From an uncultured delta proteobacterium (GTDB taxonomy: Bacteria > Myxococcota_A > Polyangia > Palsa-1104), in the NCBI GenBank assembly GCA_963785725.1, contig CAWAWS010000014.1:32001-96000 (forward strand): a DNA stretch of 64,000 nt, given 5' to 3'. A program made the translations under genes and the position numbers. The notes under the pieces were generated by a model, which worked only from the letters and a program-made list of their open reading frames with translations, was not told the DNA's origin and searched no databases. Numbering within the stretch: the stretch's first letter is position 1; every line of letters starts with the position of its first letter. Shown in pieces: positions 48,482 through 61,438 of this stretch.

Positions 48482-48540
48482 CCGGGCAGATCATCGCCCT
48501 TGTCAGATTGGGTTGTCAATTTGTGGTAACGTCGCGAACC

Positions 48541-50050
<1,510 letters not shown>

Positions 50051-54449: not shown

Positions 54450-55211
54450 GTGATCGACAGCTACCTCAAGATGATCTGGAACTTCTGCTCGCGCATGACC
54501 CTGTCGACGCAGGATGCGCGCGAGGCGACGTTCGAGACCTTCGAGCGCGCCGCGCAGAGCGGCCATCCTCCTGCGGATCCGAAGGAATTGGAGCTGTGGC
54601 TGCTCAAGATCGCGGCCCACGTCATCGAGAAGCGGCTGCCGCCGACGCCGGAAGTCGACTTCGATCTGCTCGACGAGACGCTGCGCTCGGACGCCACGCG
54701 CACGCACGAAGTCTCGTCGCTGACGACGCCCGAGCGCGAGTTTTTGCTGTGGGAGCTGAAGCAAGGCTGCATGACGGCGGTCATCAACTGTCTGTCGCCG
54801 GGCGAGCGCGTGGCCTTCGTCATGTCGTCGGTGATGAGCAAGACCGACGAGGACGCCGCCAAGGCGCTCGGCATCAAGCTGTCGGCGTTCAAGGTCCGTC
54901 TGTCGCGCGCGCGCAAGAAGATCGGCGACTACTTGGCGCCACGCTGCGAGCACGTCGATCCGCGTAATCCTTGTCATTGTCCGTCGCGCATCGGCATCGC
55001 GCTCGCCAAAGGCTTCATCGCGCCGCCGCAGACGTCGGTGGTGCAGCTGCGCGTGCCGCAGCGGCCGTTCGATCAAGAGATCAAGTCGCGCGATTCGAAC
55101 CGGATCTTTCAGACGCTGCCGGAGCCGGAAGTGCCGGCTGAGCTGGTCGAGCAGCTGCGACAGGCGGCGGCGACCGGCGCGTGGACCCCGAAGGCCGTCG
55201 CCAAGAAGTAG
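54450..55211 (+). CDS. ECF sigma factor with a Cys-rich C-terminal extension
   Basis: Region 2 (DAREAT, WLLKIA), region 4 (FKVRLSRAR), tail CEHVDPRNPCHC. Confidence 0.82.
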   Translation: MIDSYLKMIWNFCSRMTLSTQDAREATFETFERAAQSGHPPADPKELELWLLKIAAHVIEKRLPPTPEVDFDLLDETLRSDATRTHEVSSLTTPEREFLLWELKQGCMTAVINCLSPGERVAFVMSSVMSKTDEDAAKALGIKLSAFKVRLSRARKKIGDYLAPRCEHVDPRNPCHCPSRIGIALAKGFIAPPQTSVVQLRVPQRPFDQEIKSRDSNRIFQTLPEPEVPAELVEQLRQAAATGAWTPKAVAKK

Positions 55212-56428
55212 CGCGCTCGTCTTCCGCGCGCCTCGCCGGAATCGTCGCTGCCGCCGCGCTGTTCGCGGTCGCGCCGCGTGCCGCGTGGGCGCAGATCGCG
55301 CGCGGCTCGACCGTCGTGACGCACACGGCGTGGGCCTCGTGCGCCGGCGACGGCATGGCGCCGCCGCTCGAGCGCGCGGGCGCGGCCGTGCCCTACTCGG
55401 CGCAGCTGTCGGCGTTCGTCGAAGGCTGGGGCGTGCCCTATTCCGGTCGCGACGTGCGGCTCACCGATCTCGACGCCGTCGACGGCAGCAACGTCTACTT
55501 GGCCACCGCGCGCCTCGCCGCCTGCGGACAGCTGCACACCGGCTGGGGCGCGTTCGCGTGGAACTTCGGCTACGAGCCCTACGCGGTCGACGAAGCGGGG
55601 CAGCCCGATCACCGCGAATGGGGACGGCTGACGGCGGCCGAGGTCGGTCTCGCGCCCTTCCGTTGGCTCGTGCTCTCGATCGGCGTGCGTAAAGTCGCCT
55701 TCAGCTTCGGTCACGACGAGCCGGTGGAGATGTTGGAGCTGCCGGTGCGCCCCTATATTTCGCAGTCGGTGGCGCCCGATCGGCGGCTCGGCCTCACCAT
55801 CGACGACGACTTCGGCGTCGCCCACGTCGTCATCGGCCTCTACGAAGGCAACCGCGATCTCTCGATCACCACCCAAGGCGGCTTCCTGTTGGCGGCGCGC
55901 CTCGTCGCCGAGCCGCTCGGTCCCGTCGGCAACACGGTCTCGACGGTGTTCGACCCCGAGTATTGGCGGCCGCGACCGCGCTTCGCCTTCAACGCGTCGA
56001 TCTTGCTGCAATTCGCCGACGGCAACACCACTTACGCGCTGGCGGCCGACGGCGTCTTTCACTGGGGGCCGATCGGCCTCGCGGGCGAGTTCATCTACAG
56101 CTCGGGCACGACCGTGGAGGCGCCGACGCGCTTGGCGCTGCGGCCGGCGCCGCTGCGCGACGGCTTGTACATCGAGGCGGTGGCGATGCTGTGGCGTCCC
56201 TGGATCGAGCTGTCGGCGCGCTACGACTGGATGAACAACGCCGGACAGGCGGGGCAGCAGTTCCACGCCTTCACCGCCGGGGCGACGGTCTATGCGGTGA
56301 AGCAGTATTTGCGGCTGCAAGCGCTCTACACGCACAAGCTGCACTTCGACCTCTTGCCCAATCGCCCCGACATTCAAGACGACGTGCTCCTGTTCGCGGC
56401 GTCGCTGGCGCTCGAGAAGAACTTCTAA
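55181..56428 (+). CDS. Porin-like outer-membrane beta-barrel (start uncertain)
   Basis: Signal peptide ending AWA|Q, beta-strand pattern, terminal Phe. Confidence 0.72.
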   Translation: MDPEGRRQEVARSSSARLAGIVAAAALFAVAPRAAWAQIARGSTVVTHTAWASCAGDGMAPPLERAGAAVPYSAQLSAFVEGWGVPYSGRDVRLTDLDAVDGSNVYLATARLAACGQLHTGWGAFAWNFGYEPYAVDEAGQPDHREWGRLTAAEVGLAPFRWLVLSIGVRKVAFSFGHDEPVEMLELPVRPYISQSVAPDRRLGLTIDDDFGVAHVVIGLYEGNRDLSITTQGGFLLAARLVAEPLGPVGNTVSTVFDPEYWRPRPRFAFNASILLQFADGNTTYALAADGVFHWGPIGLAGEFIYSSGTTVEAPTRLALRPAPLRDGLYIEAVAMLWRPWIELSARYDWMNNAGQAGQQFHAFTAGATVYAVKQYLRLQALYTHKLHFDLLPNRPDIQDDVLLFAASLALEKNF

Positions 56429-56503: not shown

Positions 56504-59089
56504 GTGGGCCACGTCGTCGGCATCGATCTCGGCACCACGAACTCGCTGTGCGCGTGCATGCGCGGCGAGCGGCCCGAGATCATCGTCAACGCGGCCGGGC
56601 AGCGGCTGACGCCGTCGGTGGTCGGGCTCGATCGCGCGGGCCGCTTGCACGTCGGCGAGTCGGCGCGGCATCAGCGGCTGGCGCTGCCGGAGCGGACGGC
56701 GGCCGAGTTCAAGCGGCTCATGGGCTCGACGACGAAGCTGCGGCTCGGCGACCGCGAATACTCGCCCGAGGAGCTGTCGGCGCTCGTGCTGCGGCAGCTC
56801 AAAGAGGACGCCGAGCGCCACTTGGGCGCGCCCGTCACCGAAGCCGTCATCACGGTGCCGGCCTACTTCACCGACGCGCAGCGCCGCGCGACGAAGGAGG
56901 CGGGCGAGCTGGCCGGCTTCGCCGTCGTCGAGCGCATCTTGAACGAGCCGACGGCGGCGGCGCTGGCCTACGGGCTCGATCACCTGGACGCCGAGCAGCT
57001 GGTCCTCGTCTACGACTTGGGCGGCGGCACGTTCGACGTCAGCGTGCTCGAGCTGTTCCAAGGCGTGCTCGACGTCAAGGCGGCGGCCGGGAACAACCAC
57101 CTCGGCGGCGGCGACTTCGATCGCCTCGTCGCCGAGTGGCTGGCGAGCGAGTTCGCGGCGGCGCACGGCGTCGACCTGCGCGGCGATCCGCTGGCGCTCC
57201 TGCGACTTCGCGTCGCCGCCGAGGAGGCGAAGCGCGAGCTGTCGACGCAGCTGTCGACGATCGTGCGCCTGCCGTTCGTGGCCGTGCGCGCGGGCGAGCC
57301 GCTGTCGCTGGAGCTGGAGCTGACGCGCGACCAGCTGGAGCAGCTCATCGGGCCGCTGGTGCGCTCGACGCTGCAGCCGCTGGCGCTGGCGCTGCGCGAC
57401 GCCAAGCTCGATCGCGGCCGCATCAGCGACATCGTGCTCGTCGGCGGCAGCGCGCGCATTCCGCTGGTGCGCCGGCTGCTCGGCGAATACTTCGGCAAGG
57501 AGCCGCGCGCGGGCGTGCATCCCGACGAAGCCATCGCGCTCGGCGCCGCCGTGCAAGCGGGCTTGAAAGCGGGCGCGACGTCGTCTGCCATCTCGGGCGC
57601 GCGCGGCATCATGATCACCGACGTCAGCCCGTTCACGCTCGGCGTCGAGGTCTCGTCGAGCCGCGCCGGCGGCATCTTCTCGCCCATTATCCCGCGCAAC
57701 TCGACGGTGCCGATCGCACGCACCGAGGTCTATTCGACGACCGCCGCCGACCAGCGCGTCGTCGACATCAAGGTCTACCAAGGCGAAGCGCGGCTGACGC
57801 GTGACAACACCTTGCTCGCCAGCTACAGCATCGACGGCATTCCGCCCGCGCCGGCTGGTCACGAGAAGGTCGCCATCACCTTCACCTACGACTTGAACGG
57901 CATCTTGAACGTGCGCACCAAGATCGTGTCGACGGGCAAAGAGGCGCAGCTCGTCGTCCTCGAGCCGGCGCGCGCGATGACGCAGGCGATGGCGCGGCAG
58001 CGGCTGGAGCGCGAGTGGGCGCCGAGCGACCGGGAGGCGGCGCTGCTCGAGGTGGTGCGTCGTCCCCGCCACTTCGACGCGCATTATCGGCTGGCCGAGG
58101 CGCACTTCGCGGCCGGCGACGACGCGGCGGCAATCGCAGCCGTGACGACGGCGCTGGCGCTCGGCGGCGACGGCGACGGCAACGCGCGGCGGCTCCTGGC
58201 GCGCGCCTACGATCGCGCCGGTCGCGCCGACGACGCCGAGCGCACGCTGCGCCAGCTCGTCGCCGGCGCGCCCGAAGACGCGGCGGCGCGCGACGACTTG
58301 GCGACGCACTTCGTGACCCGCGGCCGGCTCGACGACGCGCTGGTGCAGTTGGAAGAGGCGGCGCGGCTGGCGCCTGGCGACCCGCGCTGGCGGCGCCAGC
58401 TCGCCGAGCTCTACCGTCGCCAGCGTCTGCTGCCGCAAGCGCGCGCGGCGCTGGCCGCGGCGTTGACGTTGGCGCCCGACGACGCCGCCGTCGCGGCCGA
58501 GCTGCGCGCGTTCGTGCGCGAGGGCGCGGCCGACCCGACCGACGTCGCGCCGGCAATCGGCAAGCTGGGCGTGCTCGGCTGGAGCGCGGTCGGCGGCGCC
58601 GTGTCGCCGCTCGAAGCCGTAGCCGTCGCCGGTCGCGGCCAGCTCGTGTGCAGCGGCAACTTGGGCGCGCTCGGTCGCGAAGCGGCGATGGTGGCGTTCT
58701 CGTGCTTGAAGCTGCTGGCGTCGACGTGGCAGCTGGACGCGCGCATCGCCACGCATGACCTGCACTTGCACTTCGGCGACAGCGACATCGGCAAAGATGG
58801 TCCGTCGGCGGGCTTGGCGCTGTGGTTGGCGGCGGCGTCGGCGCTCATGCAGCGGCCGCTGCGGGCGCAGCTGGCGGCGACGGGCGAGCTGACGCTGCAC
58901 GGCGACGTCAAAGCGGTCGGCGGCGTGCACGAAAAGCTGGTCGCGGCGCGGCTGGCGGGTGTGCGCACGGTGCTGATGCCGCGGCGCAACGCCAACGCGC
59001 TCGGGAAGCTGCCGGCGGAAGTGACGGCCAAGCTCCAGATCGTGCTCGTCGACTCGGTCACGGAGGCGCTGGCGCACGCGCTGGCGTGA
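56504..59089 (+). CDS. Hsp70-TPR-Lon protease (S16) fusion protein
   Basis: Hsp70 motifs GIDLGTTNS, TVPAYF, EPTAAA, DLGGGTFD, VGGSARIP and DLNGIL; TPR-like helices; Lon motifs DLHLH, KDGPSAG, TGELTL, VGGVHEK. Confidence 0.93.
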   Translation: MGHVVGIDLGTTNSLCACMRGERPEIIVNAAGQRLTPSVVGLDRAGRLHVGESARHQRLALPERTAAEFKRLMGSTTKLRLGDREYSPEELSALVLRQLKEDAERHLGAPVTEAVITVPAYFTDAQRRATKEAGELAGFAVVERILNEPTAAALAYGLDHLDAEQLVLVYDLGGGTFDVSVLELFQGVLDVKAAAGNNHLGGGDFDRLVAEWLASEFAAAHGVDLRGDPLALLRLRVAAEEAKRELSTQLSTIVRLPFVAVRAGEPLSLELELTRDQLEQLIGPLVRSTLQPLALALRDAKLDRGRISDIVLVGGSARIPLVRRLLGEYFGKEPRAGVHPDEAIALGAAVQAGLKAGATSSAISGARGIMITDVSPFTLGVEVSSSRAGGIFSPIIPRNSTVPIARTEVYSTTAADQRVVDIKVYQGEARLTRDNTLLASYSIDGIPPAPAGHEKVAITFTYDLNGILNVRTKIVSTGKEAQLVVLEPARAMTQAMARQRLEREWAPSDREAALLEVVRRPRHFDAHYRLAEAHFAAGDDAAAIAAVTTALALGGDGDGNARRLLARAYDRAGRADDAERTLRQLVAGAPEDAAARDDLATHFVTRGRLDDALVQLEEAARLAPGDPRWRRQLAELYRRQRLLPQARAALAAALTLAPDDAAVAAELRAFVREGAADPTDVAPAIGKLGVLGWSAVGGAVSPLEAVAVAGRGQLVCSGNLGALGREAAMVAFSCLKLLASTWQLDARIATHDLHLHFGDSDIGKDGPSAGLALWLAAASALMQRPLRAQLAATGELTLHGDVKAVGGVHEKLVAARLAGVRTVLMPRRNANALGKLPAEVTAKLQIVLVDSVTEALAHALA

Positions 59090-59101: not shown

Positions 59102-61438
59102 ATGGCCGATCCGACGAGCTTCTACCAGATCTTGGGCGTGGCGCGCGACGCCGACGAGCGGGCGATCAAGACCGCCTACTTCACGCTGGTGCGCAAGCAT
59201 CCGCCGGAGACGCACGCCGTCGAGTTTCAGCGGCTGCGCGAGGCCTACGAGATCTTGTCCAACCCCGAGTCGCGCGCCGAATACGACGCCGTGCCGCAAT
59301 ACGACGCGCATGGCGCGCACGTCGCGGCCAAGCTGCAGGCGGCGACCGAGGCCATCGACGGCGGCGACTGGCCGCGCGCGCAGGCCGAGCTGACCGCCGT
59401 GCTCGACGAGAAGCCCGATCTGCACTTCGCGCGCGATCTATTGGGCATGGCGTTCTTGAACGCGCATCGGCCGGCGGACGCGATGCGCGAGTTCGCCCGC
59501 TTGACCAGCGAGCAGCCACACCATGCCGCCTATCGGCTGCATCAGGGTTACGCGCACTACGCGCAGAATCAGTATCCGCCGGCGCTCGACTGTTATCGCC
59601 AAGCGAGCGCGCTCGATCCGAGCGACGCGCGCGCGCTCGTCGCCAGCGCCGACTGTCTGGTGGCGCTCAAGCAGTACGAGCCGGCGCTGGCGGAGCTCGA
59701 TCGCGCCATCGCGCTCGATGTCACCGTCGATCTGCAGGACTTCGTGTTCCTCATGCGGCGCGTGCAGATTCAGCTCCTGCGCGGCCGCACCGACTTGGCC
59801 GACGCCGAGCTCGACCGCATCGCCGGCGCGCTGCCCGACGACGCCGAGACGCGGAAGTATGTCGCCACGCGGCTGGCCTCGCTGGCGTCGGATCTGTTCG
59901 CGCTCAAGCGCTCCGCCGACGCCAATCGCCTGCTGGCGCGCTGTCGGACGCTCGATCCGTCGCGTAAATCGATGGCCTACACGTTTCCGGCGCGCACGCG
60001 GCTCGGCATCGCGGCGCTGCCGCCGTCGTCGCGCGATTGGCTCGCCGAGCAGGCGCACACGCGGTCGCGCGGCCTATTGCGACAGAATGCCAAGGTCGCG
60101 CCGATCGTCTGGCTCGTCGTCGCGCTCGGGCTGCAGCTGCTGGCGCTGTCGTCGGCGTTCGACGGCGGCGAAGTGTGGAGCTGGCCGCGCAGCCTGGCGA
60201 TGCTGGCGCTGTTGCTGACGGCGCCGCTCGTGCTCGCGTGGTCGATCCGCCGGCTCGTGCACGTCATGCGCAGTCCTTACGGGCGCTATACGATCGTGCA
60301 TCCCTGTCACGTGCTGCAGGTCGACATCGACGACGTCACCGTGTGGCCGCTGGTGAATCTGCACGACGTGGCGCTGACCCATCAGACGTCGAACGGCAGC
60401 TATTCGCACACGCTTTGTAAGCTGAATTTCGCAGGCGCCAGCTGTCAGATCGTCGTGCGCGGGCAACAGCAGGCGATCGATTGGGCCGATGTCGTGCTCG
60501 AGCAGCGCCGCAAAGTGCTCGACCTGCTCGGCATGGGCCTGTTGGAAGCGGAGGAGGGGTTCGACATCGTGCCGCCGGCGCTGCTGCAGCCGTCGCCGCC
60601 GCACGCGTCGTCGCGGCCGGCCGGGCGTGAAGCCGCGCTCGCGTATGCGCTCGCCGTCGTCCTCGGCGCGGCGACGTTCGCGCTGGCGCTGAAGGTCAAC
60701 GGCGGCGCGCCCGAGCGGCAGGCGTGGCGCACCGTCGCCGACAGCGGCAACGCGGCGCGGCTGCGCGGCTACCTCGAGGCCTATCCCGACGGGCCGCACG
60801 GCGACGCGGCGCGCGCGGCGCTGCGTGCGGTCTACGCGCGGACGATCGTTCGGCTGCGCGAGTCGGCGCCGGGCCGGACGACGCTCGGCGGCGCGCTCGT
60901 CGCGGCGCTGGAGACGCTGGCGCGGCACGAGGGCGCGCCGGTGCGGCTCGTCGTCACGCCGACGATCGCGCTCGCCGGCGCCACGCAGCCGGGGCTGGTC
61001 GCGCCGGCGGCGGCGTTCGGCGACGCGGCGCTGCGCAATCGCGCGCTCATGCTGCGCGGCCGGCTGCGCGCGCTCTTGGCGGAGGTCGTCGGGCCGGGCA
61101 CGATCGAGCTCGGCCACGATGACGGAGACGACCGCCAGGGCGCGCCGCTGACGTTCGCGCTCGACTATGGCGTGCGGCCGACGGACGCGCTCTATCACAC
61201 GAAGTCGGGGCTGCCGCGGAGCTTCTGCGGGCTCGAATTCGCGTTCACGCTGACGATGACGGACGATCGCGGACGCGAGATCTACCGCCTGCAGCAGACG
61301 TCGCGGCAGTCGGTTACGGATGTCACGCGGCTGCCGGCGGTCGCCGAGGACGATCTGCTCGTCTACGACCGCATGATGCAAGCGGCGTTCGTCGAGCTGC
61401 TCGATCGGCTGCGCGTCGAGCTGCAGCTCCCGCGCTGA
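59102..61438 (+). CDS. Membrane-anchored J-domain + TPR protein with a non-canonical J motif
   Basis: FYQILGV...IKTAYFTLVRKHPPE...FQRLREAYEILS...RAEYD; TPRs; three hydrophobic helices. Confidence 0.88.
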   Translation: MADPTSFYQILGVARDADERAIKTAYFTLVRKHPPETHAVEFQRLREAYEILSNPESRAEYDAVPQYDAHGAHVAAKLQAATEAIDGGDWPRAQAELTAVLDEKPDLHFARDLLGMAFLNAHRPADAMREFARLTSEQPHHAAYRLHQGYAHYAQNQYPPALDCYRQASALDPSDARALVASADCLVALKQYEPALAELDRAIALDVTVDLQDFVFLMRRVQIQLLRGRTDLADAELDRIAGALPDDAETRKYVATRLASLASDLFALKRSADANRLLARCRTLDPSRKSMAYTFPARTRLGIAALPPSSRDWLAEQAHTRSRGLLRQNAKVAPIVWLVVALGLQLLALSSAFDGGEVWSWPRSLAMLALLLTAPLVLAWSIRRLVHVMRSPYGRYTIVHPCHVLQVDIDDVTVWPLVNLHDVALTHQTSNGSYSHTLCKLNFAGASCQIVVRGQQQAIDWADVVLEQRRKVLDLLGMGLLEAEEGFDIVPPALLQPSPPHASSRPAGREAALAYALAVVLGAATFALALKVNGGAPERQAWRTVADSGNAARLRGYLEAYPDGPHGDAARAALRAVYARTIVRLRESAPGRTTLGGALVAALETLARHEGAPVRLVVTPTIALAGATQPGLVAPAAAFGDAALRNRALMLRGRLRALLAEVVGPGTIELGHDDGDDRQGAPLTFALDYGVRPTDALYHTKSGLPRSFCGLEFAFTLTMTDDRGREIYRLQQTSRQSVTDVTRLPAVAEDDLLVYDRMMQAAFVELLDRLRVELQLPR

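Follow-up and report, generated by a model that had tools for sequence, protein, structure and literature searches.

A natural Hsp70-TPR-Lon fusion gene and its membrane J-protein partner in an uncultured member of Myxococcota_A

The fusion gene and its authenticity

A gene encoding an Hsp70 chaperone fused to a Lon peptidase domain is present in the genome of an uncultured deltaproteobacterium (GTDB lineage Myxococcota_A; Polyangia; Palsa-1104; assembly GCA_963785725.1), in a stretch of 64,000 nucleotides (nt) of contig CAWAWS010000014.1 (positions 32,001 to 96,000 of the forward strand; hereafter the window, whose coordinates are used throughout). The gene (56504..59089, + strand) has a GTG start and forms a single open reading frame (ORF) of 861 amino acids (aa) without internal stops, in which the first two genes of an operon, encoding an Hsp70 and a tetratricopeptide repeat (TPR) protein with a Lon domain (TPR-Lon), are joined. 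An earlier note on this DNA had described an uninterrupted chain with Hsp70, TPR-like and Lon parts that lacks an AAA+ module, and all of these points stand: Pfam recovers HSP70 (E 1e-163), TPR families (aa 517-668) and Lon_C (aa 680-860, E 3e-45), and the Pfam and NCBIfam scans matched no AAA family to the protein. The AlphaFold2 model (56-row alignment; predicted local distance difference test, pLDDT, 86; predicted template modelling score, pTM, 0.71) likewise consists of an Hsp70 nucleotide-binding domain, the beta part of the substrate-binding domain (SBD-beta), helix A of the lid, ten TPR helices (aa 510-672) and a Lon proteolytic domain (P-domain), and its top Foldseek matches are ATP-state structures of DnaK.

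The nucleotide-binding domain (aa 1-358; 56504..57577, +) is delimited by alignment to DnaK and HscC of Escherichia coli and in the model best matches ATP-state DnaK; the interdomain linker (IMITD, aa 369-373) and SBD-beta (aa 374-486), which carries an HscC-type L1,2 insertion, follow at 57608..57961 (+) according to alignment and model. The final Hsp70 element in the model is lid helix A (aa 490-505; 57971..58018, +). The adjoining TPR block (aa 511-672; 58034..58519, +) is homologous to approximately aa 11-165 of standalone TPR-Lon proteins, relative to which a central TPR block of about 185 aa has been deleted in register. The Lon S16 peptidase domain (aa 683-861; 58550..59086, +) carries the catalytic Ser768 (codon 58805..58807, +) in the motif KDGPSAG and its dyad partner Lys811 (codon 58934..58936, +). 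Both positions are as given in the earlier note, the dyad is intact, and the same 43-residue spacing between S679 and K722 of E. coli Lon was verified on the K-12 record. The replacement of the alpha-helical lid by TPRs holds for most of the lid, but helix A persists; because it is retained, the Hsp70/TPR junction moves from near 57960, where the note had placed it, to approximately 58019-58033.

The gene is natural and not an artefact of assembly. The first junction is bridged by ungapped contigs of related strains (X3, 57879-58224; X1, 57930-58174; X5, 57850-58119) and the second by an X3 contig with three gap letters (58388-58666); run X3 belongs to a different study from X1, which may be the sample from which the window itself came. 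The same fusion with an identical junction is present in the homologs P0001 (82%) and P0002 (72%), and the GC content at third codon positions (GC3) is even across the domains (0.92-0.95). Although spurious fusions do occur, such as that of locus L059, which reads through via frameshifts in the linker and was rejected as a further fusion type, and although a closely related intact split form exists (P0243), this evidence leaves a chimeric assembly with a negligible probability. The check for a chimera proposed in the earlier note thus came out negative, and the independent homologs that it had suggested searching for exist, both as this same fusion and as other fusion types.

A family of Lon proteins without a motor

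A search with aa 480-861 as the family query gave 138 matches, of which 120 were listed: 94 TPR-Lon proteins without AAA and 26 ordinary Lon proteases. Among the listed TPR-Lon proteins, only three are fused to Hsp70; the other 91 are standalone proteins of 479-577 aa. Neither a Walker A pattern nor an AAA Pfam match was found in any of the 94. Since the AAA-less protein is mostly standalone, the motor was lost before the fusion; the dyad was kept. The description of the Hsp70 as standing "in place of" an AAA+ motor is therefore correct as far as the absence of a motor is concerned, but the AAA-less TPR-Lon already existed as a separate gene; Hsp70 did not swap for the motor within a lon gene, and the fused form is both derived and rare.

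The catalytic residues are conserved throughout the family. The spacing between Ser and Lys is 43 in all 87 of the 94 members that the pattern parsed, and all 126 family sequences in the alignment have both residues intact, a count that leaves out matches of at least 800 aa from the profile search of the representatives, in which long TPR proteins crowded the results, one ordinary Lon, one protein with three Lon_C domains and one without the Lon motif. A 565-aa protein (P0363) has three Lon_C matches and otherwise only ChlI in Pfam. In the tree, the peptidase domains group as a clade of their own, separate from LonA and on a long branch (support 100 in the Shimodaira-Hasegawa-like approximate likelihood ratio test, SH-aLRT), and the window protein reaches 147.8 bits with the NCBIfam lon model, whose cut-off is 608. 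The best solved matches of the Lon domain are LonA P-domains (E 1e-35), far ahead of RadA (E 1e-5), and there are weak matches to the RadA C-domain and to ChlI. Family-invariant changes relative to LonA near the active site (D759, S701, H809 and A792) suggest an altered specificity.

Between the family loci L030 and L032, the Lon domain is 91% identical and the TPR blocks are 72-85% identical. The best-supported strain variants within the fused Lon domain comprise 12 silent and 4 replacing changes, and the ratio of nonsynonymous to synonymous substitution rates (dN/dS) of the domain, which is indicative only and unreliable at GC3 > 0.9, is 0.30-0.50. Lon-like matches in phage records are no better than 35-38%. 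The genome of the window also encodes three full-length Lon ORFs and several DnaK-type Hsp70s. An ordinary lon gene lies immediately before a DnaK-type gene (G000:C6:336571-338828), another lies about 7 kb from an Hsp70-J pair (G000:C17:159772-168985), and a further Hsp70 gene is broken over two frames (G000:C18:24822-26349).

The Hsp70 part is HscC-like

The Hsp70 part retains catalytic and allosteric residues of DnaK; in the alignment, D8, K70, P119, D124, R127, K131, R144, E148 and T176 are equivalent to D8, K70, P143, D148, R151, K155, R167, E171 and T199 of DnaK, and the substrate pocket (V420, I422, V424) matches V436, I438 and V440. It also has traits of HscC, namely the deletion of the region corresponding to DnaK 76-101, a deletion in the D211 loop, and an insertion in L1,2 (4-8 aa as the HscC criterion). 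These diagnostic features are taken from PMC8215388, according to which the deletion of region 76-101 also occurs in many DnaKs. The GrpE-signature stretch (DnaK 290-295), which is deleted in HscC, is kept in the window Hsp70 and in L032. The window Hsp70 is 40% identical to HscC and 39% identical to DnaK, which obtains the higher bit score, and it misses the cut-offs of the NCBIfam DnaK models (570 versus 648 and 566 versus 823 bits). Its family is separate from the DnaK-type rows of the tree and is joined by E. coli HscC with an SH-aLRT support of 100, but on a branch that was flagged as long. Judged by these alignments and trees, the window Hsp70 is HscC-like without being assigned as a member of HscC.

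The lid of the window Hsp70 stops after helix A. In the split form, a linker of low complexity comes after helix A and leads into a short bundle of helices that ends in L..F[ED]L. The tail motif L..F.L is invariant (28 of 28), and the final 12 aa have a net charge of -2 to -5.

A conserved operon with a membrane J protein

The gene 12 nt downstream of the fusion gene, which the earlier note overlooked, encodes a dedicated J protein of 778 aa (59102..61438, +). Its J-domain (aa 7-62) is followed by TPRs (aa 72-284), three predicted transmembrane (TM) segments (aa 332-350, 364-382 and 512-530), a beta-rich and possibly PH-like domain between the second and third of these (aa 395-478), and a C-terminal domain predicted to be extracytoplasmic, with the topology inferred from hydropathy. 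The J-domain scores above the cut-off of Pfam DnaJ, and its helices are present in the predicted model. Its loop reads H-P-P-E (59198..59209, +), which, when aligned to the H-P-E-T of DjlB and DjlC, gives the triad P-P-E, in which the usual His is replaced; the loop is xPP[ED] in 35 of 35 homologs, all of which lack the His of HPD. The J-domain matches DjlB weakly (E 3e-5) and gave no match to DjlC. For the domains other than the TPRs, fold searches with the model returned TPR proteins only and Pfam gave no match; an Atlas search returned PH-like clusters at 0.84, which is a lead only. Distant homologs of the membrane part form an unnamed membrane family (L216:7664-9541, L217:3292-6306 and L218:7445-10174), and no J-domain or Hsp70 match was seen near them.

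In 30 genome loci with family members, almost all from records titled Myxococcota, the operon consists of genes for an HscC-like Hsp70, a standalone TPR-Lon without AAA+ and a J-domain protein with three TM segments, in that order. A census of 61 loci (54 distinct; 36 retrieved by the Lon query) has the Lon gene adjoining the J gene in 50 of the 54 distinct loci (it is missing in three and unjudgeable in one) and the Hsp70 gene upstream in 48 of the 49 loci with enough room. Because many loci had been retrieved via the Lon query, a separate search was run by J protein. With the J protein as sole query, a second order gave matches in 28 of 201 genomes, and in all 20 loci fetched the Lon gene lies between those of Hsp70 and J protein; in the order of the window, the J gene is present in 11 of 39 genomes, seven of which have the Lon gene. 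A sample of the phylum gave matches in six of 401 genomes (three of them close), and a metagenome scan (12 of 64 parts) gave four family loci among 80. The gene order is conserved across families, the operon stands among housekeeping genes in stable synteny in the family of the window, and cultured strains of Corallococcus, according to the record titles of L040 and L045, have split operons.

A fourth gene, which follows the J gene in 33 of the 54 distinct loci (e.g., L044:8909-10693), encodes a protein of about 590 aa with an N-terminal TM segment, a beta region and helical repeats; it has no match in Pfam or PADLOC, and no homolog was found in the genome of the window. The site after gene 4 varies among Corallococcus loci (L040, L044, L047, L054, L048) and is occupied by a type I restriction-modification (RM) system, a type IV restriction enzyme or a kinase. 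Locus L058 comes from a record titled Comamonas, but its operon is nested among Corallococcus sequences, so that the label may be wrong; a retron-like reverse transcriptase lies upstream of the operon.

Directly upstream of the fusion gene lies a gene for a 415-aa protein (55181-56428, +) with the look, by eye, of an outer-membrane beta-barrel, which is also present in L030 and has no match in Pfam or NCBIfam. It is preceded by a gene for a sigma factor of the extracytoplasmic function (ECF) type with a Cys/His-rich C-terminal extension (54450-55211, +), two genes upstream of the fusion, which was rejected as a core part of the operon because it is adjacent only in close relatives. A scan for promoters and terminators remained at chance level. 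Farther upstream, a gene resembling sigma-54 response regulators (48508-50050, +) extends over several frames (approximately 49160-49620), which by eye suggests frameshifts or assembly errors.

Repeated fusion after the same Hsp70 helix

In four genomes of the same genus, the operon is in the split form throughout and shares its flanking housekeeping genes with the window, which identifies the fusion in the window as derived. Four fusion types are distinguished: that of the window, P0001 and P0002; that of P0091 (locus L114, with the J gene and gene 4 downstream); that of P0267, represented by five cluster members from three sources; and that of P0364, a partial sequence on one contig. The types retain different portions of the TPR array, with distinct breakpoints. 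Fusions are rare (four of the 120 Hsp70 matches listed). The Lon tree requires four changes and rejects a single origin (p-AU 0.0016 in the approximately unbiased test, with the bootstrap not fully settled), as does a quick tree of Hsp70 with four fused rows (p-AU 0.022).

In each of the four types, the junction falls in a short interval past helix A, and the acidic C-terminal lid bundle is deleted. The standalone TPR-Lon proteins open with a basic pair of the KR type in 98 of the 102 that could be parsed (121 examined; 19 unparsed, several of them truncated), and this pair is absent from all six fused proteins, as read from the junction sequences. Loss of a stop codon alone would keep the lid bundle; its deletion together with the basic pair in four of four types argues against neutral joining. 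The joint loss of the acidic tail of Hsp70 and the Lys-Arg pair of the TPR part suggests that, in split operons, these two parts may dock on each other.

Possible function of the operon

The coupling of Hsp70 and protease in function, which the earlier note had put forward, is supported by the conservation of the operon and the repeated fusion. The preferred reading, which has roughly an even chance of being correct, is that the operon, whose first two genes are naturally joined in the window, provides a protease that is recruited to the membrane, coupled to Hsp70 and used to clip a selection of clients. The J protein would sit in the inner membrane, bring selected clients to the HscC-like Hsp70 and stimulate it; binding by Hsp70 would expose extended segments, which the motor-less Lon site would then clip. 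Cutting would be limited rather than processive. In split operons, TPR-Lon would be held on the acidic tail of Hsp70, and the fusion would exchange this contact for a covalent link. HscC pairs with the membrane-anchored DjlB and DjlC and has been proposed to act on membrane proteins (PMC8215388). A narrow substrate range is favored by the changes in the active-site region and by the fact that the genome also encodes three full-length Lon proteins, and the clients may be a small membrane-associated set, possibly including the J protein or the product of gene 4.

Several observations weigh against this reading. The operons of L214, L229 and L231 encode Hsp70 and J protein without Lon but still keep the tail motif, so that Lon can be dispensed with in these operons and docking of Lon is not the sole role of the tail; the tail may simply be the lid bundle. 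At the usual place of TPR-Lon, L231 has a 218-aa gene with features of CxxC zinc ribbons and TPRs (L231:5482-6138, -) that does not match the TPR-Lon profile. A fourth genome has the J gene but no family-level Lon match, and L053, the exception in the census, has TPR-Lon and J protein without an adjacent Hsp70. With the His of HPD absent from the J-domain, stimulation of the ATPase is not assured. In a Hsp70 tree with three fused rows, a single origin of the fusions is not rejected (p-AU 0.113), and the longer Hsp70 branch of the window (0.16, versus 0.04 in P0002) could reflect relaxed selection. Finally, Lon P-domains on their own often take up inactive conformations, which at the same time leaves room for gating by a partner (PMC9569914). 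A bolder version remains tentative and is rather doubtful: the operon may encode an ATP-dependent protease of a new class, in which the cycle of Hsp70 and J protein instead of an AAA+ ring picks and unfolds substrates for a Lon site at the membrane, in a bacterial triage of the CHIP type whose TPR-tail dock was replaced by fusion four times.

The main alternative to clipping of selected clients, though an unlikely one, is a switch for defence or regulated death, in which phage proteins or damage to the envelope would be sensed by the lidless Hsp70 and the membrane J protein, whereupon the Lon domain would activate an effector by one cut. It has precedents in the lidless DnaK-like domains fused to protease-EACC1 modules (PMC12642450), in CalpL, a Lon protease switched on by its own sensor domain (10.1101/2024.05.08.593097), and in the PilZ-DnaK fusions that drive cell death in Myxococcus xanthus (PMC10313047). 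The patchy range of the J gene and the type I RM system, type IV restriction enzyme and reverse transcriptase that flank some Corallococcus-type loci fit this picture. However, the operon encodes no recognisable toxic effector and gene 4 was not found in the genome of the window; the neighbors in the family of the window are housekeeping genes in stable synteny, and the sequences are conserved rather than fast-changing. Only 13 of 112 flanking ORFs match PADLOC at 1e-10, several of them generic (kinase, deaminase, helix-turn-helix). General quality control of membrane proteins is improbable. In such a CHIP-like triage, Hsp70 would act as an unfoldase and a hexameric Lon ring would degrade many misfolded clients, as might be expected from the DnaK-like substrate pocket, the hexamers that isolated Lon P-domains can form in crystals (PMC9569914) and the binding of eukaryotic TPR co-chaperones such as CHIP to the C-terminus of Hsp70 (10.1101/2021.10.18.464838). 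The full-length Lon and DnaK-type proteins already encoded in the genome stand against it, as do the family-invariant changes of the active-site region, which point to altered specificity. We also know of no Hsp70 that threads substrates, which counts against bulk degradation.

It is equally improbable, if not slightly more so, that the genes are merely co-expressed and the fusions are neutral deletions in a compact operon, with domains that work independently or an Hsp70 that only folds its neighbors. The operon genes abut, so that deletions fuse them easily, the fusions are rare and derived, and operons without Lon exist; yet the lid bundle was deleted at the same helix and the basic pair lost in each of the four types, and the gene order is retained across families. 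Very unlikely, finally, is a Lon domain that serves as a non-catalytic scaffold for oligomerisation, as in RadA/Sms or ComM. The weak matches to the RadA C-domain and ChlI would agree with such a role, but the dyad is invariant, and LonA P-domains are by far the better solved matches.

Significance and comparison with known systems

To our knowledge, bacterial proteolysis that consumes energy depends on AAA+ motors. Coupling of a Lon site to Hsp70, if confirmed, would constitute a second route from chaperone to degradation, for which the fusion offers a one-chain reagent. The P-P-E J-domain bears on whether the histidine of HPD is dispensable. What HscC-type Hsp70s do together with their membrane J proteins is still an open question (PMC8215388), which becomes testable because the built-in protease permits the capture of clients by a Ser-to-Ala trap. 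No published account of the operon or the fusion was found in the literature searched, whose coverage excludes most subscription journals. In their accessible sections, an article on Hsp70 in conflict systems does not mention Lon (PMC7159879), and neither a study of the Hsp70s of M. xanthus (PMC8265645) nor a survey of J-domains that includes HPE variants (PMC10410713) covers the operon.

One of the closest likenesses is to HscC with DjlB and DjlC of E. coli, which share with the window system a specialised Hsp70 with the deletions of region 76-101 and the D211 loop and the L1,2 insertion (PMC8215388), and a dedicated membrane J protein, encoded next to the Hsp70 system, whose loop is of the Glu type (HPET in DjlB and DjlC, PPET in the present system). 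A protease partner and the GrpE-signature stretch, both missing from HscC, are present in the window operon. Proteins of the window family have a low-complexity linker in place of helix B, or have lost the lid, and their J protein differs from DjlB and DjlC in its TPRs, its three TM segments and a triad without His. The Lon domain resembles those of LonA, LonB and LonC (MEROPS S16) in the fold of its P-domain and the spacing of its Ser-Lys dyad, with a Pro before the Ser as in LonA, and it is 37% identical to E. coli Lon. LonA has an AAA+ module and a Lon N-domain, both of which are absent from the TPR-Lon family, which has TPRs instead and forms a separate clade on a long branch.

The modules of DnaK-like domain, protease and EACC1 are similar in that a lidless DnaK-like domain is fused to a protease, but they contain cysteine (caspase-like) proteases and a pore-forming EACC1 effector, whereas the window protease is of the S16 serine type; their DnaK fusions have been noted but not tested (PMC12642450, accessible sections). 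No small EACC1-like gene is conserved at the operon, whose neighbors are the J protein and gene 4, although no EACC1 profile was run. CalpL, the SAVED-Lon protease of type III CRISPR systems, would be alike in having a Lon domain that is gated by a fused non-AAA domain and makes a limited regulatory cut, if the proposed model holds. CalpL is gated by cyclic tetraadenylate (cA4) and encoded beside CalpT and CalpS; the window system has no CRISPR link and its Lon domain is LonA-like. The Pfam and PADLOC scans gave no SAVED or CARF domain, and only the Lon part matches the BrxL and CARF_LON models; BrxL of bacteriophage exclusion (BREX) is marked by an AAA+/MCM-like module and brx neighbors, but the match is confined to the Lon_C part, and none of the 112 flanking ORFs matches brx.

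The triage by Hsp70 and CHIP/STUB1 in eukaryotes is an analogy only, in which a TPR adaptor on the acidic C-terminus of Hsp70 brings about degradation; CHIP is a ubiquitin ligase that binds EEVD, whereas the adaptor of the window family has its own peptidase and the Hsp70 a helical tail ending in L..F[ED]L[DEG]. CsdK1 and CsdK2 of M. xanthus are likewise myxobacterial Hsp70s fused for a dedicated job, but to PilZ rather than a protease and in another operon (PMC10313047). By the features tested, which are those of the sequences, the window system is outside LonA, DnaK, CalpL, BREX and the EACC1 modules. It is a conserved and apparently undescribed system, in which an HscC-like Hsp70 and a membrane J protein are accompanied by a Lon peptidase of their own that lacks a motor and that, in the window, is fused to the Hsp70.

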